Source: Candidatus Krumholzibacteriia bacterium
GTDB taxonomy: Bacteria > Krumholzibacteriota > Krumholzibacteriia > Krumholzibacteriales > Krumholzibacteriaceae
Reading direction: 5' to 3'
NCBI GenBank assembly: GCA_963836185.1
Contig: CAWIIQ010000001.1
Location: 1,049,424 to 1,113,423, forward strand
Length of the DNA stretch: 64,000 nt
Each line of letters starts with the position of its first letter. Positions within the stretch are counted from its first letter, which is position 1. A program made the translations under genes and the position numbers. The notes beneath the pieces were generated by a model. It saw only the letters and a list, made by a program, of their open reading frames with translations, ran no database searches and was not told the DNA's origin. Positions 2,954 to 64,000 of this stretch are shown here, piece by piece.

Positions 2954-2982
2954 CACTGTTCGTTCTGAATGATATTCCGGAA

Positions 2983-4287
2983 TCAGTTGAAGATCTCTTC
3001 CTTATGCCTGGCGGTTTTATTCGCGGGCGGATCTTTCCGTTTATCCTCGTTCGACCTCATGGAGAGCAGCAGGAGGCTGAGAGGTTCGCTGATTGTATGG
3101 CGGACGCTCGGCAGGTGGTTGTTGAATGTGTAGCGGCCGCTTCTAAGAGCCATGATCTTGTGAAACGCAGTCTTGCCGTCCCAGCTCTTCAGCCTGGCAT
3201 GGATGATCTCGCCCTTCTCGAAGAAGACCTCTCCACGCCCTGTCTGGGAGACGATCATCAGCCTCCCCGACTTCAGATTGCTGTTGAGCAATGAGACTAT
3301 ATCGAGTACAGGGATGAGCGAAAGGCTTCCCTGCAGCGGATAGCTGCGTGATTTCTTCCTGCGCTTGAGATTAAGCACGAGAAGACCGGTGATCACGACG
3401 AGAAGGACGATCAGGACATTAGACCTGAGAACTGACAGTACGCGCGAGGTCGGTTCCTCGAGTGTCTTTATCGCTTCAACACCCTTTGCGACTCCCTTCG
3501 CCATCGTTTCCCCTGCCGGGGCGGAATTCTGCTCATCTTCCTCAAGCAGCGCTATCTCCCTTAGCTTTTCTCTCGCCCAGCTGTTCTCGGGATCGAGTGC
3601 CAGGACGTCGCTAAGCGCCTTCTCGGCCTGGCCCTTCGTTTCGGCGGTATATGAGGCAAGCACCGTACGTGCCCGGCCCAGCGCATTTTCGACCTCGGCC
3701 CTGTCAAAACGCCTCTCTATCTCATCTAGCATCGATATCACATCTGTGTTCGAAGGATCGCGCTCGGCGGCCTGAACGAGGTATTCCTTCGCTGAATCGA
3801 GGTTGTCCATGGCAAGGTGGCACCTTGCGATCTGGACCAGGGGGGCGGGGTCGTACGGCCTGATCCCGAGATAGAGCGAGAGCTTGGGTATCGCGAGATC
3901 GTATTTTCCGTTGCTCATCAGTCGTTCAGCCTCGGCGAGGAGCTTGGTCGTAAGACTCTTCTCCATCCGGGCCAGCTTGTCGCGGGCCCATGTAGCGTCG
4001 GGTTCCTGCTGGAGGCCCCTGAGCAGGAGCTCACGGGCATATTCGAGCTGGCCGCGTTTCTCGTAGATCTGAGAGAGCTGCCATATCGGCGATGTGAACG
4101 ATTCGTCGTACTTAAGGGCCTTCATCAGGTAGTCTTCGGCCTTTACATCGTCACCCCGGGCGAGGGATTTCTGCGCCTCAACGAACAGGCGCTCAGCCTC
4201 TACCCTGGATGAGGACTGGGCATGAAGACAGGGGGCGAGCAGGCCCGCCGCCAGAAAAACGGCCGAAATCAATACAATTACCTTCAT
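2983..4287 (-). CDS. tetratricopeptide-repeat protein with N-terminal signal peptide and internal TM segment
   Basis: N-terminus MKVIVLISAVFLAAGLLAPCLHA. Repeated TPR-like A/Y/L-rich helices. Hydrophobic segment LIVLLVVITGLLVLNL. Confidence 0.6.
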   Translation of the reverse strand: MKVIVLISAVFLAAGLLAPCLHAQSSSRVEAERLFVEAQKSLARGDDVKAEDYLMKALKYDESFTSPIWQLSQIYEKRGQLEYARELLLRGLQQEPDATWARDKLARMEKSLTTKLLAEAERLMSNGKYDLAIPKLSLYLGIRPYDPAPLVQIARCHLAMDNLDSAKEYLVQAAERDPSNTDVISMLDEIERRFDRAEVENALGRARTVLASYTAETKGQAEKALSDVLALDPENSWAREKLREIALLEEDEQNSAPAGETMAKGVAKGVEAIKTLEEPTSRVLSVLRSNVLIVLLVVITGLLVLNLKRRKKSRSYPLQGSLSLIPVLDIVSLLNSNLKSGRLMIVSQTGRGEVFFEKGEIIHARLKSWDGKTAFHKIMALRSGRYTFNNHLPSVRHTISEPLSLLLLSMRSNEDKRKDPPANKTARHKEEIFN

Positions 4288-42355: not shown

Positions 42356-43366
42356 ATGCTCCGGTTGCCATGGGTGGGGAAAGGAAGTGACGACGTGGGC
42401 AATCTAAGGGAAGCTATGCGCCGGGAGCTGCGGCTCCGCAACTACAGTCCGGGCACGATCAGGACATATCTTCAGCACATGACAGAATTCACCAGGCACT
42501 TCGGCCGAAGTCCGTCCGAACTCGGCAGGGAAGAGATAAACTCCTACCTGCTCCACATGACGGAAGTAAGAAAGGTCTCCGCCACATACAGGGACCAGGC
42601 CATAAGCGCGCTGAAATTCTTCTACGGAAGGGTGCTGAAGAAACAGCTCATCATCGAAGAACTCCCACGTCCGAAGAAAGAATTCAAACTGCCGTCAGTG
42701 CTGAGCACAAAAGAAGTAGCTCGGCTCTTCCAGGCAGTCAGAAACCGGAAGCATCTCACCATCCTGATGCTCCTCTATTCCGGTGGTATGAGAGTAAGCG
42801 AAGTAGTCAGGCTCAAACCTGAGGACATCGATCCAGAAAGACACCTTATCAGGGTGCGAGGGGGAAAGGGACGGAAGGACAGGTACACAGTCCTCTCGGA
42901 TACGGCTCTCGATGTCCTCCGTGATTATTACCTGTCATGGAAGCCGGAATATTTTCTTTTTGAGGGAAACAGGAAAGGTTCTCATCTGTCGACAAGATCG
43001 GTCCAGAACGTCGTTTCAGCGGCCAGAAAGCGTGCCGGGCTGAAGAAGAAGTTCAGCACCCATGTTCTCAGGCACAGCTTCGCGACGCACCTCCTTGAAA
43101 GCGGCACCGATTTAAGGTATATTCAAGAACTACTGGGGCACAAAAGTGCCAGGACGACACAGATCTACACACATGTAACACGGAGGGATATCGCACGGAT
43201 CGTTAGCCCGCTGGACAGGATGATGGAGGGGGAAGCAGCGGCGACAGGACCGATCGGAACATCCGAACGGAAGAAATCTCCCACCCACCCCACCCATTTT
43301 ACTGAACGTCCTCGTCGCAAACGAACCAAAAACCGTCAAAACAACGAACCGGACACACACAAATAA
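42356..43366 (+). CDS. integron-type (IntI-related) tyrosine recombinase, co-oriented with the cassette array
   Basis: N-terminal SAM-like domain very similar in pattern to IntI (YSPGTIRTY..., ALKFFYG). Catalytic R...HxxR...Y present (VLRHSFATHLL, IYTHV). C-terminal SPLD. The IntI-specific insertion appears absent by eye. Identification rests mainly on the attC array starting about 460 bp downstream. Confidence 0.7.
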   Translation: MLRLPWVGKGSDDVGNLREAMRRELRLRNYSPGTIRTYLQHMTEFTRHFGRSPSELGREEINSYLLHMTEVRKVSATYRDQAISALKFFYGRVLKKQLIIEELPRPKKEFKLPSVLSTKEVARLFQAVRNRKHLTILMLLYSGGMRVSEVVRLKPEDIDPERHLIRVRGGKGRKDRYTVLSDTALDVLRDYYLSWKPEYFLFEGNRKGSHLSTRSVQNVVSAARKRAGLKKKFSTHVLRHSFATHLLESGTDLRYIQELLGHKSARTTQIYTHVTRRDIARIVSPLDRMMEGEAAATGPIGTSERKKSPTHPTHFTERPRRKRTKNRQNNEPDTHK

Positions 43367-43393
43367 ACTGTTATATGATAGCCGAGAGAGGCT

Positions 43394-43807
43394 ATGAGAA
43401 AGAAATACCGTAAACTTTTCACGATACTATTAGTATCAGCGTTATTGGCTTCTTGTGAAGCCAACGATATTGGAAAGTGCACACATATCCCTGTCGAAGG
43501 AGTCGCAACAATTGTCACAGTCTGAAGAGCGTTCTGAATACCAGGATTGTGGTATGGGGGTTTTATTATACATCGACCTGGCTCCCGATTGTCCAATTTA
43601 CGCTGAAAGATTTCAATACAAAATACTCGACTTCTGACTTTGTACCCCAAAAGATGGGTCGAAGCCGTTGGCTTGATAGAAGGATCTCAGCATAGGTGTA
43701 TTTACTTTGCTAAGGGTGGTCCTTGTCCTAACTATATCGTTTGGGAAGATATAGACGTACAAAGCATTGAAGATTCATGTACTGTGTGGGCTGCGGAATC
43801 ACCATGA
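43394..43807 (+). pseudogene. first cassette gene: lipoprotein of the 'DSCxVWE' family, carrying two compensating frameshifts
   Basis: ATG 43394 after gagagagg. MRKKYRKLFTILLVSALLASCEANDIGKCTHIPVEGVATIVTV (frame 2), then ...IDLAPDCPIYAERFQYKIL (frame 0, ORF 43455), then ...YPKRWVEAVGLIEGSQHRC...IEDSCTVWAAESP* (frame 2). This is collinear with the paralogs at 55813..56269 and 59517..59939. Confidence 0.5.
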
Positions 43808-43831: not shown

Positions 43832-43972
43832 ATATAACAGCAGTGTTCGCGGCTGCAGGCCTTCGGCCTTTCGCTCAGATGGCCTTTGTCACGGCGGCCG
43901 CAGGGCGACTGCCGCGCCAACCGGGCCTGGCGGCCCGGACGGCCACCTCGCGAACACGACCAATGTTATGTG
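43832..43972 (+). repeat. attC site 1 (type A, ~141 bp)
   Basis: catATAACAGcagtgttcgcgg...ctcgcgaacacgaccaatGTTATGt. Inverted cores with extrahelical bases. Confidence 0.8.
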
Positions 43973-43997
43973 ACATGACATTGAGATAGGAGGGGTA

Positions 43998-45117: not shown

Positions 45118-45194
45118 AAACCACACCTTATCGTGGTATAATTCAGCGTTGCGTGGATTCTGGCCACAAGACACTGTGCCCCAAGGATGATGAG

Positions 45195-47132
45195 ATGAAG
45201 AGCAAGAACCTCACAAGAGTACTGATCGCCTGCCTATTTATCATGATCTCTAACGAAATATCTGCTCAATGGTATGACTTGGGGAATCCTGTGTTCATTG
45301 ACCCGGGGATGTTTCAGGACACACACATTTCTTACGATGGCAATGGAGGCCTGTTCTTTACGTGGTGCGATTGGAGAAACGGGGGAGCCCCTTATCAGGC
45401 GGATGTCTATGCACAATATGTGAATGCTGACGGAATAGCACAATTCGGACTGTCGGGGATGCCAATCGATACGATCAGCGGCAATCAGTACAAGGCTAAT
45501 GTTTCATATGTGGGAGGGGATTGCGCGGTGATTGTATGGTCGGACCTGATGGATGGATATAAATTGCGAGCTCAGCGCATTAATTCCGAAGGAATGGTAT
45601 TCTGGGGAGACAGAGGTGTGGATGTATCAGAACAGTCAGGAATGGGAGAAGTCGCATCAGTGATTCCAGATATTAATGGAGGAGCCATAATATCCTGGAG
45701 AAATTTTTATGTTTGGATTCAACGGCTGGATTCACTGGGCAATCGGATGTGGGGGGAGGACGGAATAAGAATTAACAATATTGGGGACACTGTTGGCAGT
45801 GCTCCTGCAATTGTGAGTGATGGGGCGGGAGGCGCAATAATCGTATGGTCAGACTATCGCTCTGGGAGCATGACGCATGACATATATGCTCAACGTGTTA
45901 ACTCAAACGGGGATGAGTTATGGACAGACGGGGGATTGCCGATTAACAACAATGAAGGAGCTCAAACTCAACCCTCAATAGTGTTTGACGGAAATAACTC
46001 CTTTATCAGTTGGTTTAACAATACATGGGACATCGGTGTTCAGAAAATAGATCACGATGGTAATCTCTTATGGAATGTTAATGGAGTATATATTAGTCCA
46101 ATAGAGCCCAGACCTAAGTATCGAGCCATGGCTGCCGATAATCATGGAGGTGTGATTGCCGCTTGGGAAGATTTTAGGAATACGAGTTCAACTGAATCTG
46201 ATATTTACGCTCAGCGGATTCGCTCAGATGGGGAGATTGCATGGGATATAGATGGTATTGCGATTTACATTGGTGGAGGGGATCATCAACAGCCAGCAAT
46301 TTCTACCACATCATCAGGCGATGCTATCATTGTTTGGACTAATTATTATGGAATTTACGCACAACGAGTGGATACCAGCGGAGCAATATATTGGCCAGAA
46401 TACGGTGAAAACATTTCAAGAGGGCCAGGGTGCCAACACTGGCCACTTATCCAGAACATCGATGACAAAGAATTATTCGTTGTGTGGAATAAGAATGAGA
46501 ATGATGCATGTTATGGAAACGACGATTTATATGTTCAAAAGATTGATCTTGAAGGACACATTGTAGGCACATTTCTAGATCAGGCCGAATGGTATTGTGT
46601 CTCTGATGAAATATGTTTGAAATGGTCGATTGTCTTATCCGCAAATAATCTTGAATTCATTATACTGCGCACATTAAGCGGAGAGCATAAGTACAGAGAA
46701 GTTGGCCGGATTATTGGATTCGAACGTCAATCCGAATTTTGCTATATTGATAGCACATGTAAACTTGGGGAAAAGTACATATATCGTGTTATCGCTTCCA
46801 TGGAAGATGATGAGATGTTGCTTTTTGAAACTACAACAATCCTGATGCCAAATCTAAAGTATGTTCTTCATCAGAATTATCCGAATCCGTTCAATCCAAT
46901 AACCAAAATCTCATACAGTCTGCCAAAACAGTGCATCGTCAGCTTAAAGATATACGATATTATGGGAAAAGAGATTGTATGCCTTGTTAACAATCAATTG
47001 CAGCAAGGTGAACAGGTAATACATTGGGATGGTAAAAACCACTTCGGAGATCTTGTTTCTTCCGGAACATATTTTTGCAAGCTTTTTGCTGGAAAACAGA
47101 CAAAAGTAATTAAATTGATATGTCTGAGATGA
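45195..47132 (+). CDS. cassette 3: secreted repeat (beta-propeller-like) protein with T9SS C-terminal sorting domain
   Basis: Signal peptide MKSKNLTRVLIACLFIMISNEISAQ. About 8 repeats of ...GGAIIxWxD...IYAQRxNxxG.... C-terminal QNYPNPFNPITKISYSLP...IHWDGKNHFGDLVSSGTYFCKL = T9SS CTD. The table ORF start at 44985 lies inside attC 3 and is rejected. Confidence 0.7.
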   Translation: MKSKNLTRVLIACLFIMISNEISAQWYDLGNPVFIDPGMFQDTHISYDGNGGLFFTWCDWRNGGAPYQADVYAQYVNADGIAQFGLSGMPIDTISGNQYKANVSYVGGDCAVIVWSDLMDGYKLRAQRINSEGMVFWGDRGVDVSEQSGMGEVASVIPDINGGAIISWRNFYVWIQRLDSLGNRMWGEDGIRINNIGDTVGSAPAIVSDGAGGAIIVWSDYRSGSMTHDIYAQRVNSNGDELWTDGGLPINNNEGAQTQPSIVFDGNNSFISWFNNTWDIGVQKIDHDGNLLWNVNGVYISPIEPRPKYRAMAADNHGGVIAAWEDFRNTSSTESDIYAQRIRSDGEIAWDIDGIAIYIGGGDHQQPAISTTSSGDAIIVWTNYYGIYAQRVDTSGAIYWPEYGENISRGPGCQHWPLIQNIDDKELFVVWNKNENDACYGNDDLYVQKIDLEGHIVGTFLDQAEWYCVSDEICLKWSIVLSANNLEFIILRTLSGEHKYREVGRIIGFERQSEFCYIDSTCKLGEKYIYRVIASMEDDEMLLFETTTILMPNLKYVLHQNYPNPFNPITKISYSLPKQCIVSLKIYDIMGKEIVCLVNNQLQQGEQVIHWDGKNHFGDLVSSGTYFCKLFAGKQTKVIKLICLR

Positions 47133-48014: not shown

Positions 48015-48155
48015 GGATAACAGAGTGTTCGCGGCTGCAGGCCTTCGGCCTTCGCTCAGATGGCCTTTGTCACGGCGGCCGCTGGAGCGCCCGCCGCGCC
48101 AACCGGGCCTGGCGGCCCGGACGGCCACCTCGCGAACACGACCAATGTTATTCGC
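48015..48155 (+). repeat. attC site 5 (type A)
   Basis: ggATAACAGagtgttcgcgg ... caatGTTATTCg. Confidence 0.8.
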
Positions 48156-48559
48156 CATGTGGCAGATGAATAAATTTAACTTCGATTTCTTCTTATTTTT
48201 TAGGACTCTTCTTTCCCCGCAGTACAGCCCCATCCAGCCTCAGGGTGACTTCCGGAGTCTCTAAAGCCTGATCGATCCAGTACCTCATATTTTCTCCGAT
48301 GTTAAGGCCTAGACTCGTGCCGTAACGGGCCTGAGGGTGGCTTGCGGCTGAGACTGAGATCCTCGATCCTGAGGTTTTAAGGGGCCGAGATTGGTAGGGG
48401 AGAGCTCGTAAGGAACTTGCTTTCAACGATCGGGGCAATTCAGCGTACGACTTCGGGTCGCGCTGTCGCATCTTTATCAGCCAAGGGTTGGCTGAAAGAC
48501 TATTGAACCGGAGAGATTAAAGGATTAGATTTATAGGTGAGGGGTGATCTAGTATGAAT
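48156..48559 (+). other. cassette 5: ORF-less conserved element, copy 1 (candidate structured RNA / mobile 5' leader)
   Basis: About 404 bp between attC 5 and attC 6. Shares long conserved blocks with 51800..52215. Ends in SD-like aggtgagggg + ATG reading into attC 6. Confidence 0.5.
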
Positions 48560-48675
48560 TCCACACGGCGTATAACAGAGGTGTTCGCGGCTGCGCATGT
48601 CACCCGGCCTGCAGAGCACGCCGGGCGCCAATGCTTCGCGTACACCGCCTGCGGCGGCGTCGCGAACACTCACAA
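48560..48675 (+). repeat. attC site 6 (type B variant, ~116 bp)
   Basis: Same R''/L'' (tATAACAGaggtgttcgcgg) and L'/R' (cgcgaacactcacaatGTTATAC) but a different central region. Confidence 0.75.
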
Positions 48676-48740
48676 TGTTATACGATAAATGCCCTTATTC
48701 CTTTGACATATTCAATTCTACATAGATAGAATCTCCATAC

Positions 48741-51639
48741 ATGTTAGGGGAAACAATCTCACATTATGAAATTCTCGAGAAGCTCGGCGAGGGCGGGATG
48801 GGCGTAGTCTACCGCGCCCGTGACACGAAGCTCGACCGCGAGGTGGCTATCAAGCTCCTGCCCCCGCACCTGAGCTCCGATCCCGAGGCGGTAAAGAGGT
48901 TCGTCCATGAGGCGAAGACCGCCTCGGCCCTGAACCACTCCGCTATAGGCGTCATCCACGAGATAGACGAGACGGATGACGGCCAGACGTTCATCGCAAT
49001 GGCCCTCTACGAGGGGGGACTCTCAGGGAGAAGCATCGACAGCGGCAGCATGACATCTAGGCGAAGCAGTAACCATAGCCTCCCAGATAGCCTCGGGTCT
49101 CGACCAGGGCCCACGAGAAGGGGATAGTCCACAGGGACATCAAGCCGCAGAACATACTTCTGACCAGAGACGGCGAGGCGAAGATAATCGACTTCGGCCT
49201 AGCGAAGCTCGCCGGAAGGACGAAGCTGACGAGGGACGGGAGTACGCTCGGCACTGCCGCCTACATGTCCCCCGAGCAGGCGAGGGGAGAAGAGGTCGAT
49301 CACCGTTCGGACATCTTCTCTCTCGGGACGATCCTGTACGAGATGCTCGCCGGTGAGCCACCATTCAAGGGGGAGCACGAGGCGGCGTTGCTCTACGGGA
49401 TAGTGCACGAGGAGCATGAAGAGATATCGGAGAAGTGCGGGGGCATAGCACCGGAATTGTGCAATGTGGTCGGAAAGACGCTGAAGAAGGAAAAGGAAGC
49501 AAGGTATCAGAACGCGGCGGACCTGAAAGCTGAATTGAAGAGGTCGAGCACCGGCAGTGTCGATGAGGGCGGACCGAGGGATACGAAGGACGCTGGAAGA
49601 GGTAAAGGGTTCTGGATAGGCATTGCGGCGGTCACCGTGACACTCACAACTGCCGTACTTCTCGTAATGACCGGACGTGAGCCGGCGCCGCTTACCGCTT
49701 CGGAGATGACTCTCGCTGTGGTTGATTTTAATGACCTAGCAACAGAACCGGATCCTATAAAATCCAAGACGATTACAGAGCTGCTAAATACCTCCCTGGG
49801 AGATTTCTGTCCGATACGCGTTCAGAGCCCGGAACGAGTAAGGGAATGTCGAAGACAGCTTTTCGGTTCAACTGAAGCGCAGATAGAGGAAGGGCAGGAA
49901 CTGGAGATCGCGCGCAGGAGCGAAGCGACCTATTTGCTTACTGGCAGCATCAGTGTCGTTGGCAACGACGGTTTTATCTCTTGGAGGCTCATAGATGTAC
50001 TAAGTGGGACTATCATCAAGGCCGGAACAGTCGAACCAGGTGAGATGATGGCAGTAGTTGATAAGATCGTGGAGGTCGTATTGCCGGAGATCGCAGAAGC
50101 TTCGGGAGTTGAGCAGACTGCAGAGCAGGTTTCCGTGGCACAATCTCGACATCTTCACAGCAGGCGTTTGAGCATTACGTTAGGGGTAAGATAAATCATG
50201 ACAGCGATCGTCCAGTCGAAGCACTCGATGAATACACGAAAGCTGTCGGATTAGATTCCAGTTTTGCTCTTGCCTGGTTTGCTATGTCTAGACTCTACTA
50301 TGGTGCCATGATGATTAGGTATGATCCGGCACTTTATAATAAATACAATGAGCTTGCCTTAAGGTATGAATCCAGGATGGGCACCAAGGAGAGGATGCAG
50401 CTTCGTGCTATTAATCTTGGAGGAGTCAAAACGATAGAAAAACTCAAGGAAATCCTCGAGCTCTGGCCTGATGACCGCGAGACGCTGCAGATGCTCGTCC
50501 TCAGAACCCACTATAATTGGATGCAAAAAGAATGTATCGAGTACTCTCGAATCGGATTGACGCTATACCCGGAAGACCAGGTTTTCGGAGGAAGTATCTA
50601 TATCACATCTCTTAATAATTTGGGTCTAAGCCAAGAAGCGATGAAGGCGTCCAGAGAATTTATCAGAAAATATCCTGACGATTCGGCAGCTTGGCGTTCT
50701 CTTGCCGAGACATTTGTGGTCATGGGGCAACCGGACAGTGCCGAGGCGATCTGCAGAATAATTTTGGAGAAATATCCTGAAGGCAGCCAGAATGCAGAGG
50801 CAAGGCGGATGATAGCACGATGTGCATATCTTGCAGGCGATCTAGATGAATCGATTTCAAGGTATGATAGATTATTGTCAGACGCGAACCTGGATGAATC
50901 TACTCGTCAGGAGATTCTTTCTAACTATACTCACATTATAGATCTTACTTATGTATATCGAGAAGCTGGCCGCTACTACGACGCCTTGCGGACCTTGAAT
51001 GAGGCAAGACCGTACTTCGGCAACCGACCTGATCGCTGGGAATTACAAATGGGCTATCTGCTAGTAGATATTGGCAGGAACAAGAATGCGTTGAAACTCG
51101 CTGAAGAGATGCTTGCATCAGATAATATGCCAATGCAGAGGTATGCCAGACGATTCATGGGCAAGGCGCAAGTTAATAATGGTGATATCCAAGGTGCTCA
51201 GGAAACTGTATCGATACTGGATGGACTTGGCATAGTCAGGGGACCTATCTACAAGTACCATTCATTTTTCACTCAGGCATATATTGCATTGGCAAGGAAT
51301 GATGCTTCAGTGTCTCTAAAGCATCTTGATGATGCGGCCCAGATAGTGGGCTTCTCATACTGCATGTTCGGAATCGAGCTGAAGACATTGCAGGCGGAGG
51401 CGAACAGACTGGCAGGGGACCTGGAGGCGGCAGCCTCGATCCATGAAGAACTGCTGAGGATTCATGGCGGACATGCATTGTCACACTTCGAACTCGGTAA
51501 ACTGTATGAGGCAATGAGAAGAACGGACGAGGCAAAACTGCACTATAATAGATTCCTAGAGATGTGGAATAACGCTGATGATGGATTACCTCAACCTGCA
51601 CTCGCGAGGGAGAGACTGACAGCGCTTAAAGGTGTTTAA
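48741..51639 (+). pseudogene. cassette 6: degraded Ser/Thr protein kinase fused to a TPR domain (at least 3 frameshifts between 49010 and 49140)
   Basis: Kinase subdomains [27 protein letters not shown] and SPEQ are present but spread over three frames. The C-terminal TPR region (50284..51639) is intact in one frame and contiguous with the kinase region in sequence. Confidence 0.55.
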
Positions 51640-51658: not shown

Positions 51659-51799
51659 GCATAACAGTGTGTTCGCGGCTACAGGCCTTCGGCCCTTCGC
51701 TCAGATGGCCTTTGTCACGGCAGCCGCAGGGCGACTGCCGCGCCAACCGGGCCTTGAGGCCCGGACGGCCACCTCGCGAACACGACCAATGTTATCCGC
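51659..51799 (+). repeat. attC site 7 (type A)
   Basis: cATAACAGtgtgttcgcgg ... caatGTTATCCg. Confidence 0.8.
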
Positions 51800-52215
51800 T
51801 ATGTGGCAGCTGATTGAATTTATCTTCGATCTTTTCTTTTTATTGGGACCCTTCTTCCCGCCCATCCCAACCATTACCAGCCGGAGGTCGACTTCCGAGA
51901 GTCTCTAGAGCTAGTTCTGCAAGGTGACGAGTCCAACCCCTGTAAGAATAATGCCTCTATAGATGATCCGGCCTGAGGGTGGCTTGCGAGGCGCGACTGA
52001 GATCCTCGGGTCAAGAGGCTTTAAGGGCCGAAATAGGGGTAGGGGAGCGATCGTCAGGGACTTGCTATCATCGGTCTGAGGCAGGTTCATCTCTCGACTT
52101 CGGGAGGCGCAGTCGCAGTTCTATCAACGGGTCAACGCCGAAAGACTATTGAAAGTTCGAGATTAACGGTATAGATTTAGAGGTGAGGGGTGCCTATATA
52201 TGAATTCCACACAGC
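51800..52215 (+). other. cassette 7: ORF-less conserved element, copy 2
   Basis: Collinear with 48156..48559 (blocks ...atgtggcag..ttcgat..ttctt..., ggcctgagggtggcttgcg, gactgagatcctcg, cgacttcggg, aaagactattgaa, gagattaa.gg.atagattta.aggtgaggggtg...atgaattccacac). No conserved ORF on either strand. Confidence 0.5.
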
Positions 52216-52346
52216 GGATAACAGCAGTGTTCGCGGCTACGGGCCTTGAGGCCCTCGCTCAGATGGCCTTTACCGGCCTTTGGCGCGCCGGCCAACCGGG
52301 CCTGAGGCCCGACGACCAACTCGTTAACATGACCACTGTTATGGAG
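52216..52346 (+). repeat. attC site 8 (degenerate type A)
   Basis: ggATAACAGcagtgttcgcgg ... ctcgttaacatgaccactGTTATGG. L' arm mutated. ATG of the next gene lies inside R'. Confidence 0.65.
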
Positions 52347-53038: not shown

Positions 53039-53434
53039 ATGAACAAGTTCCCAGCAATATTTTTTTTGTCACTCCTTCTGGCTTCCTGCCGAGATCCTTT
53101 CGCGCATGAATGGGAAAACTTATATCAGCTCAGCGCAGATCAGATTATTCTACCCGATACTGCTCAAATATTTCAACCGATGCAGGTCAAAGTGCAGGTT
53201 ACTTTAGATACATCTAATCATAATTACAAAGACCAATATATCGAAACAACACCAGATGGCTATCTGATAGTGCTGATTGGTGTAATAGAAGATACGAGAT
53301 TTCCAGATAATGACCCGGATCCCAGAACAGAATGGCATTCTTTTAACCTTATCCCATTTAAGAAAGGAGAAGTAATCATTGAGGGGAAACGAGTCAATTC
53401 AGAGAATCTTATTGATTCAGTGTATGTTCAGTAG
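53039..53434 (+). CDS. cassette 9: lipoprotein, 'EWHxF' family member 1
   Basis: MNKFPAIFFLSLLLASCRDP... contains ...PDT...TEWHSFNLIP.... Paralogous to 54398..54760 and 54947..55336. Confidence 0.6.
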   Translation: MNKFPAIFFLSLLLASCRDPFAHEWENLYQLSADQIILPDTAQIFQPMQVKVQVTLDTSNHNYKDQYIETTPDGYLIVLIGVIEDTRFPDNDPDPRTEWHSFNLIPFKKGEVIIEGKRVNSENLIDSVYVQ

Positions 53435-53646: not shown

Positions 53647-54207
53647 ATGCATATGAGAACTACACTGAATATTGACGATGATCTGATTCGCAAGGCAGCG
53701 AAGATGACAGGGATCAGCGAGAAGACTTCCCTGGTACGCCTCGGGCTTGAAGCATTGATCGCTCTTGAGAGCGCGAGAAGGCTAGCAGCTCTTGGCGGCA
53801 CAGAGAAAGATCTTGGCCCTGATTCCTCGCAAACGAACGAGTTCGTGAGTATGATCCTGGCTGATACATCTGTATGGATCGATCATCTTCGCAATGGAAA
53901 CAAGCGGATGGCTCTTTTTCTGAACGAAGGTGTCGTTTTGTGTCATCCTTTCATACTCGGGGAATTGGCCTGTGGGAACCTCAAAAACAGAGCTAAAATA
54001 CTCGATATGCTTGCTTCCCTTCCGACAATGCCAGTTGCAGAGCACAGTGAAGTGCTTGATTTCATTTCCCGATACAAATTCCAAGGGAAGGGTATAGGGT
54101 GGATCGATGCCCATCTGTTGGCATCAACATTTCTGGCGAAAAGCCGAATCTGGACTCTCGACAAATCTTTACTAAAGATAGCAAAAGACCTGAAGGTCTC
54201 AATATAG
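53647..54207 (+). CDS. cassette 10: VapB-like antitoxin + PIN-domain VapC toxin in a single open frame
   Basis: N-terminal MRTTLNIDDDLIRKAAKMTGISEKTSLVRLGLEALIA (VapB/DUF2191-like). C-terminal MILADTSVWIDHL...GELACGN...IDAHLLA (PIN acidic residues). No stop between the two parts. Confidence 0.7.
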   Translation: MHMRTTLNIDDDLIRKAAKMTGISEKTSLVRLGLEALIALESARRLAALGGTEKDLGPDSSQTNEFVSMILADTSVWIDHLRNGNKRMALFLNEGVVLCHPFILGELACGNLKNRAKILDMLASLPTMPVAEHSEVLDFISRYKFQGKGIGWIDAHLLASTFLAKSRIWTLDKSLLKIAKDLKVSI

Positions 54208-54382: not shown

Positions 54383-54397
54383 AAGCGCGGGATATGT

Positions 54398-54760
54398 ATG
54401 AATAAAAAAATCGCATTATCGATCCCATTACTTCTTGTAGTTGCATGTAATCTATTCAAGCCACCTGAAAAGATACAAACATGGGCTGATGTCGAACAGA
54501 TTGTTGTTCCTGATACTGTTGACTATTTCGAAGCTTTCGAGATCAGCGCTGAAATTTCAATGGACCATACATGTAAGTATGTAGGTCCTGTGCTGGAAGA
54601 AACTTCTGAGGGCTGCTCCATTACCATTATCGTTGAATCTGTGGAAGTGAGCTTTCATGAAAAGGATATTTCTGAGTGGCATACCTTTACTCTGAGACCT
54701 CTCGAATTGGGATCTTACATCATCAGGGTGAAAAGTAAGAATGTGGAAGATTCTTGTTGA
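54398..54760 (+). CDS. cassette 11: lipoprotein, 'EWHxF' family member 2
   Basis: MNKKIALSIPLLLVVACNLF... contains ...PDT...SEWHTFTLRP.... Confidence 0.6.
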   Translation: MNKKIALSIPLLLVVACNLFKPPEKIQTWADVEQIVVPDTVDYFEAFEISAEISMDHTCKYVGPVLEETSEGCSITIIVESVEVSFHEKDISEWHTFTLRPLELGSYIIRVKSKNVEDSC

Positions 54761-54932: not shown

Positions 54933-54946
54933 AGGCGAGGGGAACA

Positions 54947-55336
54947 ATGAAATTAGCGGTTGGAATAATTGCAATTATCGTTATTTGCTCTTCCTGCGAA
55001 GATCCACCAGTAAAAGTATGTGACCGACCAGTAATGTTGGAAGTAGAACAGTTGATGGCTCCGGATTCTTGCAGGTTAGGTGAGCAGGCACAATTACAAG
55101 TCGAAGTAATTCTTAACGGTTCAAGTTATAGTTATTTCGGCCCCGACATTAACGACACAGATTCGGGTTGTAGAATAAGGATTATGGGAGAAAAAGATGA
55201 ATGTGCACTTAACACTCCTTGCATTTGCTACGAGTGGCATTCGTTTGTTATTTCCCCCTCACAAACGGGAATATACATAATAGAGATAATTAATTCTCAA
55301 GCTGATGATTTAGCGGATACAATAACAGTGTATTAG
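54947..55336 (+). CDS. cassette 12: lipoprotein, 'EWHxF' family member 3
   Basis: MKLAVGIIAIIVICSSCEDP... contains ...YEWHSFVISP.... Confidence 0.6.
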   Translation: MKLAVGIIAIIVICSSCEDPPVKVCDRPVMLEVEQLMAPDSCRLGEQAQLQVEVILNGSSYSYFGPDINDTDSGCRIRIMGEKDECALNTPCICYEWHSFVISPSQTGIYIIEIINSQADDLADTITVY

Positions 55337-55693: not shown

Positions 55694-55768
55694 ACATAAC
55701 AGAGTGTTCGCGGCTGCGGGCCTTGCGGCCCGGACGGCCATCTCGCGAACACGACCAACGTTATGCGA
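55694..55768 (+). repeat. attC site 14 (short variant, ~75 bp, central region deleted)
   Basis: acATAACAGagtgttcgcggctgcgggccttgcggcccggacggccatctcgcgaacacgaccaacGTTATGC. Confidence 0.7.
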
Positions 55769-55812: not shown

Positions 55813-56269
55813 ATGTTGAAATCAGGAATGTTCATCATTGCCGCTGTTTTTTTTATTCTCGCTCCTTATTTCTTGTGAGGATGAAGAAGGCATCATTTGT
55901 GGGGGAGAGTGCCTTTATCATGAGATACCAGGCACAGCATCTATTATTTCTGTTACTGATATTGATGGATCTACCTATTGTGGAGATCCTGTCGAGGTGA
56001 TTTACAACTTTACTCCAGATGATCCAAGCGATATTGATCCAGACTATTTGACGATTTGGCCACTCGATAATATTTACTACAAGATAGGTCAAAACAATCC
56101 GCCACGAAGATGGGTTGAAACGCATGGACTTCTGGCAGGAACAGACCATCCATGTACAAGATTTAGGATTTACAAGGGATCTTGTGTGCCTGTTGGATAC
56201 AATTTTGATGGCATAGATGATTACAGTGTCTCTGATTCATGTGATGTATGGGAGCAAGAGATACCATAA
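55813..56269 (+). CDS. cassette 14: lipoprotein of the 'DSCxVWE' family; frameshift in a T8 homopolymer at ~55848
   Basis: ATG 55813 gives MLKSGMFIIAAVFF. After removing one T of the T8 run this continues ...LFSLLISCEDEEG... (lipobox). C-terminus ...DSCDVWEQEIP. Confidence 0.5.
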
Positions 56270-56293: not shown

Positions 56294-56426
56294 GCATAAC
56301 AGAGGCATTTGCGTACTCGCCTGGCTTCGCCAGAACTAGGCTGTCACGGCCGTTGCAATTTGAGTGCATGATGATAGATAAATAGGGGATTGCGGCTGCG
56401 CCGCGAATGCTCACAATGTTATACGG
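56294..56426 (+). repeat. attC site 15 (type B-like variant, diverged arms)
   Basis: gcATAACAGaggcatttgcg ... cgcgaatgctcacaatGTTATAC. Shares the ...ctcacaatgttatac end with site 6. Confidence 0.65.
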
Positions 56427-57042: not shown

Positions 57043-57105
57043 GGATAACAGTGTGTTCGCGGCTGCAGGCTCAGGCGGCCACCTCGCGAGCATAAGCAAT
57101 TGAAG
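57043..57105 (+). repeat. attC site 16 (truncated, R' core mutated): array terminus
   Basis: cggATAACAGtgtgttcgcggctgcaggc|tcaggcggccacctcgcgagcataagcaattg. Central part missing. GTTAT replaced. Confidence 0.6.
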
Positions 57106-57216: not shown

Positions 57217-59436
<2,220 letters not shown>

Positions 59437-59516
59437 AAGGAAAGATTAAGGTATCGATTAGTTTAATAGATGCTCATGAGGTCAGGAAAATCCTAAATCT
59501 CTTTCAGGAGAGGGGT

Positions 59517-59939
59517 ATGAAAGAATTCTATGTAATTGTCTTTTGTGGCTTAATCCTGCCATTTATACCTTCCTGTGGTTGTGATTCCATGCAGGTCGAA
59601 GGAACAGCCAAGATTCTTTCTGTTACAGTGATAGATACCCTGACAGAATGTGGTGGTCTGGCTGAAGTGCGTTTTGATTTTATTCCAGATGATCCGTCGA
59701 TGACTCAGGAAACCAGATTGAGCATGTACCAGACGACAGATGTAAAGTGGAGAGTGCTGTATTACGAGTATCCCCCGAAGAAATGGTTGGATTTAGTCGG
59801 TGTAACTGAGGGATCTGAGCAAAGATGCAGTTTTGAGTGCTATTGGGGTGGAGGTTGTGGAGGATGGAACTGGGATTTCCTCGATGTCTCTGAGGAGTCA
59901 GCGATCGATTCATGTGAGGTATGGGAGGGAGAGGAGTAG
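59517..59939 (+). CDS. lipoprotein of the 'DSCxVWE' family (outside the attC array)
   Basis: MKEFYVIVFCGLILPFIPSCGCDS...YPPKKWLDLVGVTEGSEQRCSFECYWGGGCGG...IDSCEVWEGEE. Collinear with cassette genes at 43394 and 55813. RBS aggagagggg. Confidence 0.6.
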   Translation: MKEFYVIVFCGLILPFIPSCGCDSMQVEGTAKILSVTVIDTLTECGGLAEVRFDFIPDDPSMTQETRLSMYQTTDVKWRVLYYEYPPKKWLDLVGVTEGSEQRCSFECYWGGGCGGWNWDFLDVSEESAIDSCEVWEGEE

Positions 59940-59942
59940 GGC

Positions 59943-60359
59943 TTGTTTAAAATCGTAGTAGTTTTCATCTTATTCGTTACTCTTTTTCCCGGATGTTCTG
60001 AGGAGAGTGTAGCTCCTGAACCAGGGGGCGCTATTGACGATCCTTGCAGAGGGAACAATCCTCCTGCAATTGAAGCTCTGCCTGACACATTCGTAGCACT
60101 CGGTGATACGATCTGGCTGTACGCCGTCGGGCACGATCCTGATCATGACGAGATTCATTTCCTCAGCAGCTGCAACAATATAACATGGGCACAATTGCAG
60201 TCTGGAGATCTGCCGATATTTGGAGTAAACGCTAAAACAGGAGTGTTCAGATTTGTGCCGCGATCTTACGATGATCCCTACAGGGTATTCGAGGTCTGGG
60301 CCGCGGATTCCTGTGACGCTATTAATTCCTCGGAATTCACTATTCAAGTTACGCAATAG
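59943..60359 (+). CDS. lipoprotein with Ig-like/cadherin-like fold (putative)
   Basis: Lipobox LFPGCSEES. Motifs PPAIEALPDTFVALGDTIWLYAVGHDPDHDEIHF resemble dystroglycan-type cadherin-like/He_PIG domains. AT-rich. Confidence 0.5.
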   Translation: MFKIVVVFILFVTLFPGCSEESVAPEPGGAIDDPCRGNNPPAIEALPDTFVALGDTIWLYAVGHDPDHDEIHFLSSCNNITWAQLQSGDLPIFGVNAKTGVFRFVPRSYDDPYRVFEVWAADSCDAINSSEFTIQVTQ

Positions 60360-60438
60360 AATATATAGACTCACAAAATCTGTAGGACAATGCGGAAATA
60401 CCACTTGTCAGAATCTGTGATGACGGTATTTTCAAGGT

Positions 60439-61053
60439 ATGAAGAGAAACATTGCTATATTGCTTTTTCTCCTCGCGATCACATCCCCACTCAGAATCAA
60501 TGCTGAAGTCCTGGGCACGGCGCAATACACCATGTCCTTTGCTAATTTTGGATATATTGATTCGATGCCGTTGCTGCTCGAACTTCATATAAAGATGTTT
60601 AATTTGACTCCTCTTGATGGAGAATCAACTGGTGAGATATGTACGATACCTTTCGAGGCACATCTGGATTCGACCGATGTCGATACGGTTCTTGTGGCGA
60701 ATGAGGGAGTCTGGTGGACGGAACGTGCTAAAGAACTTTTAACCAATGATCATTCGGAGGGTATTGGAATAGGGTGCTACCTGGTATGGCCAAGCGGTGG
60801 AATCGGCGGCTTCTGGTTCTATGATCCTGAGCAAGAAGCCTTTCTGCTCAATAGTGCGGACTTTCACGGAGCGACGATCACTGGTATTTCCCTCAGAGTC
60901 GATGAAATATCATTTGATATCATCGATGGGCATATTGGAGAACTGGTTGATGTGTACTGCCGTGCGACATTGATCGTTGAGGGCAGTTGGAACAATAATG
61001 TCGCGACCGAAGAATCCTCATGGGGATATATCAAAACGATCCCTTCTCAATAG
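60439..61053 (+). CDS. secreted hypothetical protein with C-terminal ATEESSWGYIK motif
   Basis: Signal peptide MKRNIAILLFLLAITSPLRINA. C-terminus ...NNVATEESSWGYIKTIPSQ shared with the ORF ending at 36253. Confidence 0.5.
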   Translation: MKRNIAILLFLLAITSPLRINAEVLGTAQYTMSFANFGYIDSMPLLLELHIKMFNLTPLDGESTGEICTIPFEAHLDSTDVDTVLVANEGVWWTERAKELLTNDHSEGIGIGCYLVWPSGGIGGFWFYDPEQEAFLLNSADFHGATITGISLRVDEISFDIIDGHIGELVDVYCRATLIVEGSWNNNVATEESSWGYIKTIPSQ

Positions 61054-61107
61054 ACACCAGTCATATTCAATGCTTATAATGCTGTCCGTTATACTAGCGG
61101 AGGTTAT

Positions 61108-61590
61108 ATGAAGCGAATCCTGGTTATTCTTGCGGTCGTAGTAGTTGTTGTTGTTTCGTGTTCCGATGATGATTCCATTACTGCGCCGGAACCATGCACT
61201 CCATTCTTTTCTGCAGAGTCTCTTCAAGTCGTGGTGGAGTATATATATTTACCGCTTCTTGACGTATGGGTGTGGGGCGCTAAAGCAACATACAAATATG
61301 AACTTTATGGATGCAGCGGGAAGATTCACACGCATGAGTTTGTCTTTAGTGAGCCGGGCGAGACACTTACTGTTCATGACAATACTATCGCCGATTGTTT
61401 TGAGCCGATAGATATACAACTCGACAAGACTGCAAGAGTGTCGACTACGGACGATCTGTTTGCTGGATTTGACAGTGTGACGGTATTTTTCACCCTGAGA
61501 GGACTTCACCAGCAATGTTATAGCGGCGCTGTGGACAGCATCGCACCTATAATATGGAGCAATACAGTTCGCGCGGAAGTATTAGATTAG
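61108..61590 (+). CDS. hypothetical lipoprotein
   Basis: MKRILVILAVVVVVVVSCSDDD lipobox. AT-rich. Confidence 0.5.
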   Translation: MKRILVILAVVVVVVVSCSDDDSITAPEPCTPFFSAESLQVVVEYIYLPLLDVWVWGAKATYKYELYGCSGKIHTHEFVFSEPGETLTVHDNTIADCFEPIDIQLDKTARVSTTDDLFAGFDSVTVFFTLRGLHQQCYSGAVDSIAPIIWSNTVRAEVLD

Positions 61591-61638
61591 AGTCGAACCG
61601 GACGATTATCCATGACCAGGAGTAGAGAGAAGAGAGTG

Positions 61639-61854
61639 ATGTACAGGATCTTAATCGCTATAGTAGTTTTAGTCTCGATTGCTTCATGTACGGGAACTGC
61701 CGGGGACAGCTCGAAGGAGAAGCTGACTCAGCGTGAGAGGGACAGTATCCTCGCTGAGACCGATCTTCCGGGAGCGGGCGTCGTCGGAAAAGCTATCGAA
61801 GCGTCAGATTCCTCAGCCGCGAGAGCCAGGAGGCTTGATGAGCAGTCTGACTAG
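61639..61854 (+). CDS. small lipoprotein (71 aa)
   Basis: MYRILIAIVVLVSIASCTGT lipobox. Internal ATG of table ORF 61612. Confidence 0.45.
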   Translation: MYRILIAIVVLVSIASCTGTAGDSSKEKLTQRERDSILAETDLPGAGVVGKAIEASDSSAARARRLDEQSD

Positions 61855-61884
61855 TCATGGCCGGGCTCAGGGGCATACCCAACT

Positions 61885-62484
61885 ATGAAAAATGCCGCTA
61901 TTTCTTTCATCCTGATGGTCAGCCTCGTTTTCGGCTGTTCCAGGCCCTATTCGGAACTGGACCTTCCGTATGAAGACGAGACGGAAAAGGAAGATTACGC
62001 TGTATATTCGGAAAGTATCGAGTATGTCTACCTGCGCAATCTGGTATCGCACAATAAACGAGATGTCAAATCTATCGTAGTCATCTCGCAGACTGATGAA
62101 CTCAACGAGTACTGGAAGAACAAGTTTATCAGCGAGCTCGAGGACGAAGGCATACAGGAAGAAGTGATCGAAGCCTGGAGGACGGAAAACAATTCTGTAA
62201 TTCTTCTCCAGAGGAAATTTGATTTTGATTACGAATACTTCATCGTTAACAGAGATGAGCTCGATGAATACGGATCCGAACATTTCTTCAGTGAGTTTTA
62301 CAAGCGATATCCTGATTCGAACGGGCTGATCTCGGTCTCCAGGATCGGATATGACGAAACGAGGACTACAGCGCTGATCCACGTGATACACAGCTTCGGT
62401 ACGCTCGGAGCGAGATACTACTTTCTTGTGCTGCAAAAGAGTGCTGGTGGATGGGATGTGGTTCGGAGGATCTCTACCGGGTAA
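61885..62484 (+). CDS. hypothetical lipoprotein
   Basis: MKNAAISFILMVSLVFGCSRP lipobox. AT-rich. Confidence 0.5.
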   Translation: MKNAAISFILMVSLVFGCSRPYSELDLPYEDETEKEDYAVYSESIEYVYLRNLVSHNKRDVKSIVVISQTDELNEYWKNKFISELEDEGIQEEVIEAWRTENNSVILLQRKFDFDYEYFIVNRDELDEYGSEHFFSEFYKRYPDSNGLISVSRIGYDETRTTALIHVIHSFGTLGARYYFLVLQKSAGGWDVVRRISTG

Positions 62485-62932
62485 TCAGGTATCAGTCTCG
62501 ATACTGCCACACAGTCTGCGTGAACAGAAAGTTCATATCAAAAAAAAGTGAGGGAATATAAGGGTTGCGGGCTCATATCCCCTCAGTGCCGATTCGGATT
62601 GCAATCAAGGTTGACAGCAGAGCAACCATGCTTATCAAGGATACGTTTCCTGCCATATTTAATGACTTATTTACCGTATCCTGAAGTCCCGTTAAGGGCT
62701 CTTCTCATTAATAATAAATATGTGTAGCTGCTGCCTCCTCGGTTGAGAGCCTGTCGACATTCAAAGTATAACCGGATATCTGAATCTGTCCAGACCGGTA
62801 CTGGATATCGGCTGGATTGACAAACGTTCCGGCAGTGATATACTGATAGCGTCTGGTTGACCGGGGGAACTGCCTGTCAGGCTCTGATGGCATCGCTTCC
62901 ATTTATCATACCGAACGAACGAGTAACGTATT

Positions 62933-63490
62933 ATGCATATACTTTCCATCTTCATGTTTTTCATGTTCCTGTACTGGTTGAGCAACAGGCTCAGCCGGCC
63001 TGCTCCAAAGCCGTTCATGGAGCCATGGCACAGAGGTGTTTCCACGGAGGAACTGGTAAGGCTGTACGATTCCTGTGACATCCTGGTCTTCGGGCGAATC
63101 GAAAATCTCGAGAACATGGACGTCGAAAGGTATGTCATGGGAGCAAGACATAGATTCGTCGAGGTCCATCTCGAAGTCAGGGTGGCGCTGCCACAGGATT
63201 TGAAGGATTCTGACGCAGTGATCAATTCGTGTTATTTCACACGGCAGGGAGACTTGAGCGGAGGGAGTAAAGGAGTCGGAGTCTATCCAGGGCTGAATGA
63301 TAAGATCTGCCTCGGGTTGTTTATGAATTCGGTTAAAAACGGTGTTCATTATCTCGGGTCGAACAATCCCTTTTACCTGATCAGCGATGATAAATGGATG
63401 CCGTACGCAAGAAGGCAATGGATAGACCTTATCCCCGCGGACAGACCTCTCACGTGCGATTTTACTGATTCAGGCTCCAGCATCAACTAG
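62933..63490 (+). CDS. hypothetical protein
   Basis: Table ORF. N-terminal hydrophobic segment. No recognised domain. Confidence 0.4.
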   Translation: MHILSIFMFFMFLYWLSNRLSRPAPKPFMEPWHRGVSTEELVRLYDSCDILVFGRIENLENMDVERYVMGARHRFVEVHLEVRVALPQDLKDSDAVINSCYFTRQGDLSGGSKGVGVYPGLNDKICLGLFMNSVKNGVHYLGSNNPFYLISDDKWMPYARRQWIDLIPADRPLTCDFTDSGSSIN

Positions 63491-63628
63491 AGATAACCAT
63501 TCATTTTTCAACCAGGCACAACTTTCAGTAGTAATTCCAGCCGGAATATCGTACAAATTCCCAAGATATTGAAACTAATGAATATCCGTTCTGATTGCGT
63601 TACGGAATCATCGACGAAAGGAGCCTTG

Positions 63629-64000
63629 ATGGCCTGCCCGGAATGTTACAGCAACGACCCGCGAGTGACACCTATTCTCGACCCGGAAAGTTGCCTGATG
63701 ACTCACGCACAGTATGTCTGCTCGACTTGTGGGAGATGTATCTGCGCGGAAGCTGATGCCCAGAACAAGTACAGGATCAAATATCCGTTCAATTCGCTGG
63801 AGATCGCCAAATTGTACCTCAGAGCCGCTGAAGCGATCTATGGCGGACCGTGCGAGATCTACGAGATCGAATACTCGAATGGCAGGCTCCTGTACAAGAT
63901 ATTCCACACAAAAGAGGATTTGGAATCATACCTGAAGAAAAATACGATGCAGAGCTGTCCGACAGGTAAACCTCTTTTTACTACTCCCTCGTATAAACCA
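63629..64000 (+). CDS. Cys-rich (zinc-ribbon-like) hypothetical protein, 3'-partial at the window end
   Basis: ATG 63629 after aaaggag. MACPECYSNDPRV...CSTCGRCIC.... Open to the end of the window (not in the ORF table because no stop). Confidence 0.4.
   Translation, partial: MACPECYSNDPRVTPILDPESCLMTHAQYVCSTCGRCICAEADAQNKYRIKYPFNSLEIAKLYLRAAEAIYGGPCEIYEIEYSNGRLLYKIFHTKEDLESYLKKNTMQSCPTGKPLFTTPSYKP

Follow-up and report, generated by a model that had tools for sequence, protein, structure and literature searches.

The tyrosine recombinase and its attC array

The window analysed here, a stretch of 64,000 nucleotides from a contig of Candidatus Krumholzibacteriia bacterium (CAWIIQ010000001.1, positions 1,049,424 to 1,113,423), carries a tyrosine recombinase gene, a run of cassettes in the same orientation, the gene katG, and an AT-rich block of small genes (Table 1). 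Three homologous genes, called c1, c2 and c3 in order of position, share the C-terminal motif DSCxVW; c1 is the gene of the first cassette, c2 lies near the far end of the array, and c3 follows katG. An nhmmer profile, a repeat search and direct reading together locate 16 attC sites between 43833 and 57100, a count that makes c2 the gene of cassette 15 rather than of cassette 14, as the preliminary description had numbered it. Most of these sites are ~135 nt in length and nearly identical, with ATAAC...GTTAT cores; deviating sites comprise one 70-nt short form (55696-55768), three variants, and the final site of the array (57045-57100), in which the R' core is mutated. Every cassette ORF lies on the + strand, and a core matching GTTATNYR is present at every cassette boundary. 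The GC content is 55-63% in the upstream core genome and mostly 39-51% in the cassettes, and Rfam finds no match anywhere in the region 42000-64000. Immediately before c1, a core reading CTGTTATATG is found 3 nt past the stop codon of the recombinase gene, and we infer that positions 43367-43379 represent attI.

The recombinase matches the Pfam model Phage_integrase, PF00589, with an E-value of 4.4e-42, and scores 244.8 against NCBIfam model NF040815 (cutoff 220) but only 230.9 against TIGR02249, below the cutoff of 265. Its top match in the PDB is VchIntIA (2A3V, E 1.3e-42), aligned as two stretches, and its residues 191-207, just 17 in number, stand where IntI4 has residues 180-238, which number 59. 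The tyrosine recombinase catalytic domain is thus nearest to that of IntI, while by the PDB alignment and by TIGR02249 the additional domain near patch III is absent. IntI is defined by an IntI-specific insertion of ~40 aa, and activity is reported to require this additional domain around patch III (Messier & Roy 2001, cited in PMC4889954 and PMC9668308). Homologues of the 336-aa array recombinase, at 300-344 aa, have the same length, and the layout, an attC array served by a recombinase lacking the IntI-specific domain, recurs in Krumholzibacteriota-like MAGs.

Two such recombinase genes, among homologues with 61-80% identity, are found at 10001-10990 of locus L023 and at 10001-10909 of locus L025, the latter in a Krumholzibacteriota MAG, and each is followed by a co-oriented attC array of the same kind as that of the window. 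Under IntegronFinder-type criteria, the arrays of the window, L023 and L025 would be classed as CALINs.

Table 1. Features of the recombinase region, the attC array and the block after katG
Feature	Positions	Strand	Basis or remark
Tyrosine recombinase of the array	42356..43366	+	IntI-like; cassettes co-oriented with recombinase gene
Putative attI crossover core AAACTGTTATATG	43367..43379	+	3 nt past recombinase stop codon; matches GTTATNYR
c1, first cassette's gene, pseudogene as sequenced	43394..43807	+	+1 (extra T 43523), -1 (near 43613-43618); intact orthologue P0008 in L006
attC of c1 cassette	43833..43973	+	nhmmer E 1.9e-45; attC alignment
Short attC (~70 nt) directly upstream of c2 cassette	55696..55768	+	nhmmer, attC alignment
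c2, gene broken by one extra T	55813..56269	+	T8 run 55847-55854
Variant attC closing c2 cassette	56296..56422	+	ATAAC...GTTAT cores read directly; attC alignment; core match at 56418
Last attC of array, short, R' core mutated (CAATTGAAG, not CAATGTTAT)	57045..57100	+	nhmmer
katG, intact, 734 aa, host-like GC	57232..59436	+	Separates array from attC-less block
AT-rich attC-less block, small co-oriented genes, 46-48% GC	59437..64000	+	Partly syntenic with L008, L020
Conserved 5' leader of putative c3 cassette	59483..59516	+	Homology to orthologous cassettes begins here; preceding R' GTTAT absent
c3, intact member, putative former cassette without flanking attC	59517..59939	+	Orthologues, synteny, dN/dS
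Gene A, lipoprotein gene, TTG start, putative former cassette	59943..60359	+	3 nt past c3; L008 orthologue 1535-1906 downstream of attC; cassette in L021, L022; L020 remnants
Lipoprotein gene	61108..61590	+	35%-identical homologue is attC-bounded cassette L001 2225-2716 (blastp E 3e-27; L001 attC 2736-2829)

Elsewhere in the array, two cassettes of ~530 nt (48155-48685 and 51799-52343) are ~80% identical over ~420 nt and have no convincing + strand ORF. Their conserved blocks include a hairpin-like motif, CGACTTCGGG, and Rfam returns nothing for either; they may represent a non-coding RNA cassette or a decayed gene. A 3-kb, GC-rich (~55%) cassette at 48741-51639 carries an apparent Ser/Thr kinase-TPR gene divided among three ORFs (48741-49127, 49265-50194 and 50284-51639), another frameshifted cassette gene, with a 67%-identical stretch in L013. 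The genes vapB and vapC form one fused ORF of 186 aa in the window (53647-54207) and two overlapping genes in L001 (2886-3445, 81% nucleotide identity), which suggests another indel in a cassette gene. Cassettes 9, 11 and 12 encode a second three-member paralogous lipoprotein family (53040-53434, 54390-54760 and 54945-55336), marked by the motif EWH[ST]F, with two members 30% identical over 103 aa (E 9e-13). Cassette 4 (45192-47132) encodes a protein of 646-715 aa with the T9SS C-terminal sorting domain PF18962, which points to an FCB-group host and shows that exported proteins dominate the cargo of the array. In a related array, that of L020, a cassette at 2599-3012 gives a weak Pfam match to Inhibitor_I42, the chagasin-type peptidase inhibitor, hinting that exported inhibitors belong to this cassette pool.

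Homology and reading frames of the three genes

The genes c1, c2 and c3 lie at the coordinates first given for them, and the homology described is borne out, with E-values between 1e-7 and 1e-18. When c3 is used to search the whole window by tblastn, c2 is matched over 118 aa with 33% identity (E 8.8e-15), and a second match (E 7.3e-7) covers the C-terminal part of c1. The family HMM, applied to all 2100 six-frame fragments of the window, returns c3 at 3.8e-80, c2 at 1.5e-64, the C-terminus of c1 at 6e-13 and its N-terminus at 0.003, and along the family alignment the three c1 pieces follow one another in order. Neither tblastn with c3 nor the HMM search of the six-frame fragments finds a fourth copy in the window. 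Pairwise identity among the three is only 33-44%.

The DSCxVW C-terminus is common to all three, as the preliminary description had it, but other motifs it listed as shared are not, since c2 has IPG in place of VEG and HPC in place of RC. Read by eye, the lipoprotein signals run MRKKYRK...LLASC in c1, MLKSG...LLISC in c2 after removal of one T, and MKEF...FIPSC in c3. A basic N-terminus, a hydrophobic stretch and a lipobox of the form [LVI][ASTVI][GAS]C, the hallmarks of bacterial lipoproteins, are predicted from the sequence. A lipobox had been reported for all three genes; this holds for c1 and for the corrected c2, but the IPSC of c3 is atypical in having P at -2, where its orthologues carry LFASC. 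The start of c3 at 59517 is set by its orthologues and an SD sequence; the public annotation of c3 (P0001, 168 aa) begins 28 codons earlier and overlaps the katG stop (59433-59516).

The reading frames are as first described: two compensating frameshifts in c1, one additional T in a T8 run in c2, and none in c3. An exhaustive profile search recovered an intact orthologue of c1, P0008, and nucleotide alignment of c1 with this L006 gene reveals two indels and no more, an additional T at 43523 and a base absent near 43613-43618, ~92 nt apart, with the remaining sequence colinear. After repair, c1 encodes 136 aa and is colinear with P0008, also of 136 aa. The middle piece of c1 scores 70.1 bits in the shifted frame versus 57.4 and 58.2 bits in the other frames; 200 shuffles, performed as a control, give 55.1 +/- 2.2 with a maximum of 63.6. 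In c2, the ATG at 55813 follows an SD sequence, GGAGGAG, located 8 nt upstream, and the ORF runs into the T8 tract. With seven T residues, the protein begins MLKSGMFIIAAVFLFSLLISC, 21 residues, equal in signal peptide length to its nearest orthologue in L014, MNRSCIFIIAVGLLILLNISC.

By our reading, c1, which occupies the newest position in the array, and c2 would have been inactivated recently by single-base indels. Alternatively, the frameshifts may be assembly or consensus errors, with all three genes intact in the organism, a possibility we take seriously but consider unlikely. The source is a 2.3-Mb metagenome-type contig, the T8 tract is an error-prone homopolymer, and the two indels in c1 compensate exactly and leave, once repaired, a gene colinear with its orthologue. 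The dN/dS values of repaired c1 and c2, moreover, are as low as those of intact genes, which fits errors as well as very recent mutations. Against this, runs of seven to eight identical bases elsewhere in the window stay in frame within ORFs that read through them (A8 at 8975, A8 at 12328, T8 at 53060, and G7 in katG), the c1 indels lie outside homopolymers, and both katG and an AT-rich cassette ORF of 715 aa are unbroken. The family, furthermore, does decay: the orthologue of c3 in L008 has an independent in-frame stop, TAA, and has lost one conserved Cys. Judged by dN/dS, the family encodes real, constrained proteins, and the disruptions are either recent or artefactual.

We consider it improbable that the T8 tract of c2 is a phase-variation switch, at which slipped-strand or transcriptional slippage would turn the lipoprotein on and off. 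The tract does fall in the signal-peptide region of a predicted surface lipoprotein, past a strong SD sequence and ATG, and a second T8, in frame, is found in the signal peptide of another cassette lipoprotein (53060). Eight bases, however, are short for efficient slippage, and neither the L014 nor the L007 orthologue has the tract, which therefore cannot be a conserved device for phase variation.

Origin of the three copies and the surroundings of c3

All three types of the family are found elsewhere as attC-bounded cassettes in other metagenomic arrays. The nearest relatives of c3, P0002-P0004, show 66-79% amino acid identity; that of c1, P0008, shows 75% nucleotide identity; and that of c2, in L014, shows 57% amino acid identity, with another c2-type protein, P0007, in L007. 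The c1 type in L006 has a short attC 3' of the gene, and the c2 type in L007 and L014 has attC on both sides, of another sequence type. For the c3 type in L001, L004 and L005, it is the window's own type of attC that stands directly 3' of the gene, and in L005 a canonical R' end, ...CGACCAATGTTAT, stands directly 5' as well. The neighbours of the c3 type differ: L001 has vapBC and a 171-aa gene beside it, L008 has gene A, and L004 and L005 have yet other genes, so that the same cassette occurs beside different genes in different arrays, as a mobile cassette does. Within the window, c1 and c2 each have their own attC 3' of the ORF and c3 has none; the upstream G|TT crossover is seen before c2, in CAACGTTATGCG at 55760, as it is in the core that precedes c1.

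Closer orthologues elsewhere as cassettes, together with the low identity among the window copies, argue that the copies represent independent captures rather than local duplicates. Of the earlier term paralogues, then, homology stands, while duplication within the array is not indicated. In the proposed sequence of events, c1, c2 and c3 would have entered a chromosomal integron-like array as separate cassettes, drawn from a pool rich in the DSCxVW family. Taken as a whole, the account in which the three were captured separately, c1 and c2 were broken by indels, and c3 became fixed after loss of its attC sites is one we hold to be quite probable. Duplication within the array, with the copies kept by positive selection acting on the family here, is very unlikely. 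Three members of a rare family do occur at one locus, with coding sequence under purifying selection, but identity among the copies is no higher than 33-44%, only one of them is unbroken, orthologues in other arrays are much closer (75% nucleotide identity for c1, 57% amino acid identity for c2, 79% for c3), and the ranking of matches already suggests that each copy groups with foreign cassettes.

Estimates of dN/dS by the method of Nei and Gojobori are 0.06-0.17 in all c3-type comparisons and, with the frames repaired, 0.14 for c1 and 0.09 for c2, values indicating that the coding sequence of the DSCxVW genes was under purifying selection. The suggestion that the family is selectively retained cargo gains from these low values and from the intact and fixed c3, but loses from the broken state of c1 and c2 and from the stop codon in the L008 orthologue.

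That c3 lies outside the attC array is confirmed, as the nhmmer profile detects no attC on either side of it in the window. The same profile finds no attC remnants anywhere after 57100 (best E 5.9, on the wrong strand), nor is the GTTATNYR core enriched there, with 1 match versus 1.35 expected. Candidate R' remnants in the block after katG were dropped, since GTTATNYR is enriched neither there nor in L008. Where orthologous cassettes have the core GTTAT, the sequence before c3 reads GAGGTCAGG.

Comparison with L008, MAG contig CAYWGA010000044.1, is instructive. The order there is a 34-nt mini-attC, the c3 orthologue (895-1314), a full attC of the window's own type (~1340-1476), and the gene A orthologue (1535-1906), followed further on by orthologues of window segments 61645-61852, 61976-62774 and 63603-63999. 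Relative to L008, ~215 nt including the attC are missing from the window between the stop codon of c3 at 59939 and gene A, with both ORFs left at full length. Gene A has a full-length attC on both sides in L021 and a shortened attC on both sides in L022; in L020, it is accompanied by two collapsed attC remnants, and the orthologue of window gene 61885-62484 comes next. The vapBC cassette of L001 retains only CGACCAATGTTAT of its attC, fusing vapBC with the c3-type cassette. Across related genomes, attC sites form a decay series of 135 nt, 60 nt, 34 nt, R'-only remnants, and none. These comparisons strongly support the interpretation of c3 as a former cassette, and gene A is strongly supported as another on the same kind of sequence evidence.

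At the distal, old end of the array, attC hairpins would erode by internal deletion. In the source genome, a deletion of ~215 nt would have removed the attC between c3 and gene A, and the upstream attC would have been lost too. With attC gone on both sides, c3 could no longer be excised, and would now be a fixed chromosomal gene directly downstream of katG, with which it is probably co-transcribed; no terminator-like site was found between the two. The direction of change for c3, from attC present to attC lost, is the one favoured by parsimony over four relatives. The reverse, in which c3 and its neighbours are ancestral chromosomal genes and the pool from which cassettes arose by addition of attC, draws on the open question of where cassettes in general originate and on a block that has no attC remnants and is partly syntenic in L008 and L020, but is highly improbable, as it calls for four lineages to have gained attC sites at identical boundaries and leaves aside the different neighbours of c3 orthologues in L001, L004, L005 and L008, like those of mobile cassettes, the partly deleted, intermediate attCs beside gene A and the L008 c3 orthologue, and a block GC of 46-48% that is cassette-like, against ~58% in the host.

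The position of katG between the array and c3 counts against the interpretation of c3 as a former cassette. The gene, without an attC of its own, lies between the last, mutated attC and the c3 leader, with segment 57045-57231 on one side of it and 59437-59482 on the other. By reading of ORFs by eye, L008 has a methyltransferase-like cassette at the position of katG, and segment 4007-5505 of its attC-less block intersperses AT-rich lipoprotein genes with two genes of the opposite strand, one GC-rich and resembling trpB, the other a small regulator. This segment mirrors katG in the window, as host-like genes scattered in a decayed distal array.

The preliminary description had taken the AT-rich block after katG to consist of former cassettes. 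The comparisons bear this out for c3 and gene A, and such an origin is plausible for 60439-61590, but it is not shown from 61612 onward. In L008 and L020, too, the genes matching 61612-62484 and the region past it keep their synteny and have no attC, and those beyond ~61600 may represent a conserved flank rather than former cassettes. One gene of the L008 block, at 2821-3372, resembles by eye an ORF 3' of an attC in L006.

The DSCxVW family and comparable systems

No model in Pfam-A, NCBIfam or PADLOC scores above threshold for c1, c2, c3 or ten wider members of the family; scans of Pfam, NCBIfam and PADLOC that included the proteins encoded after katG likewise yield nothing for it. A profile search of 1.84 billion representatives returns 240 clusters at E <= 1e-3 and 85 at E <= 1e-10. 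The consensus of the ~115-aa domain is GGPCxYxxIPGTAxIxSV..C..VEVxFDFxPDDP...NPPxxW...GLxxGSxHxCxRxEIxxGTCTPVxFxFxDxD...C, usually preceded by a signal peptide or lipobox. The nine best matches, which include the c1-, c2- and c3-type proteins, have the DSCxVW C-terminus. DSCxVW proteins make up the branch found in cassettes, within a broader family, as yet unnamed, of exported proteins that contain Cys. Distant members occur in MAGs labelled Dehalococcoidia, Thermodesulfobacteriota, Phycisphaerae and Leptospirales; in the neighbourhoods examined (L009-L013), they are single genes, with no attC arrays and no conserved neighbour.

An AlphaFold2 model built on 123 sequences (pLDDT 87.6, pTM 0.78) predicts a small alpha+beta domain. 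Foldseek finds no match to this model in the PDB (best E 0.24, TM 0.23), and a search of PDB sequences with the family profile is empty. Foldseek matches to phage "lipoprotein" entries in BFVD (E ~0.03, TM 0.38-0.46) were judged not significant. In c3, another residue stands in place of the His of GSxHxC, and no set of residues looks catalytic. P0017, a larger exported member of the family, has a MopE-type metal-binding motif according to Pfam, and P0010 and P0095 have N-termini that look dockerin-like by eye, where Pfam gave no domain. Lack of conservation of the His in c3, together with these fusions, points to a domain that binds rather than one that catalyses. We tentatively propose that DSCxVW proteins are candidate disulfide-stabilised binding modules of the envelope or surface, serving as inhibitor, immunity-type decoy or adhesion, and not enzymes.

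MliC/PliC lysozyme inhibitors are small exported inhibitor or immunity lipoproteins of ~100-120 aa in mature form, with a lipoprotein signal and conserved cysteines. DSCxVW proteins resemble them in mature size (~100-120 aa), signal and conserved cysteines, but neither by sequence nor with Foldseek do they resemble a solved structure, and they have no known target.

The locus resembles a sedentary chromosomal integron of a known sort, in which ordinary cassette capture, decay and fixation are seen rather than a new kind of system. Such integrons of the "inverted integrase" type have been described in Treponema (Cury et al. 2016, PMC4889954; PMC3607928). As in those, short promoterless ORFs, oriented like the recombinase gene that they come after, alternate with near-identical attC sites whose cores read ATAAC...GTTAT; toxin-antitoxin modules such as vapBC occur in cassettes, along with paralogous cassettes and pseudogenes; and relatives share cassettes in different orders. 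Arrays of this type are known to contain paralogous and toxin-antitoxin cassettes, pseudogenes, and attC sites in a degraded state. The window differs in that its recombinase has no IntI-specific insertion of ~40 aa and in that its distal end, interrupted by katG, grades into fixed genes without attC. Cury et al. 2016 (PMC4889954) propose that an isolated attC site may be what is left of a cassette after genetic degradation. The present locus is akin to CALINs, single attC sites and degraded cassettes, with graded attC deletions here visible directly across relatives, but the end state in the window is total loss of attC with both flanking genes intact, a state to which attC-based tools are blind. 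Less ordinary, then, are the comparative series for complete attC loss with both neighbours kept and the recombinase without the IntI-specific insertion.

In the rAID arrays of Bacteroidales, a tyrosine recombinase gene lies upstream of short genes that are co-oriented and low in GC, the motifs between these genes are conserved, and one array has several divergent (~30% identical) homologues of one family (PMC12247911). At the level of layout, a recombinase with co-oriented, short, low-GC genes and intergenic motifs is just what the window shows, and the likeness may be drawn as an analogy only. In contrast to rAID arrays, the window's intergenic repeats are bona fide attC-like hairpins, no link to an effector is known, and the cargo is exported as predicted lipoproteins without detectable similarity to known immunity families; Pfam and PADLOC family searches detect no known immunity domain in DSCxVW proteins. 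Considerably more speculative, and in our judgement rather doubtful, is a reading that would join these elements: a working integron, driven by a recombinase without the IntI-specific domain, in which DSCxVW lipoproteins would be envelope-defence or inhibitor modules carried in divergent versions. The system would then be the equivalent, built from cassettes, of rAID arrays in Bacteroidales, and deletion of attC would have "locked in" its useful members.

The locus offers a clean comparative example of integron cassettes turning, as we read it, into permanent chromosomal genes through graded erosion of attC. Because attC-based detection misses such genes, the cassette-derived content of genomes is underestimated. 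The example also brings to light an unnamed exported family of ~240 clusters, in which one branch travels as cassettes; the fold is predicted with confidence, and Foldseek matches it to no solved structure. It further draws attention to a lineage in which the IntI-like recombinases serving attC arrays lack the domain considered essential for attC recombination.
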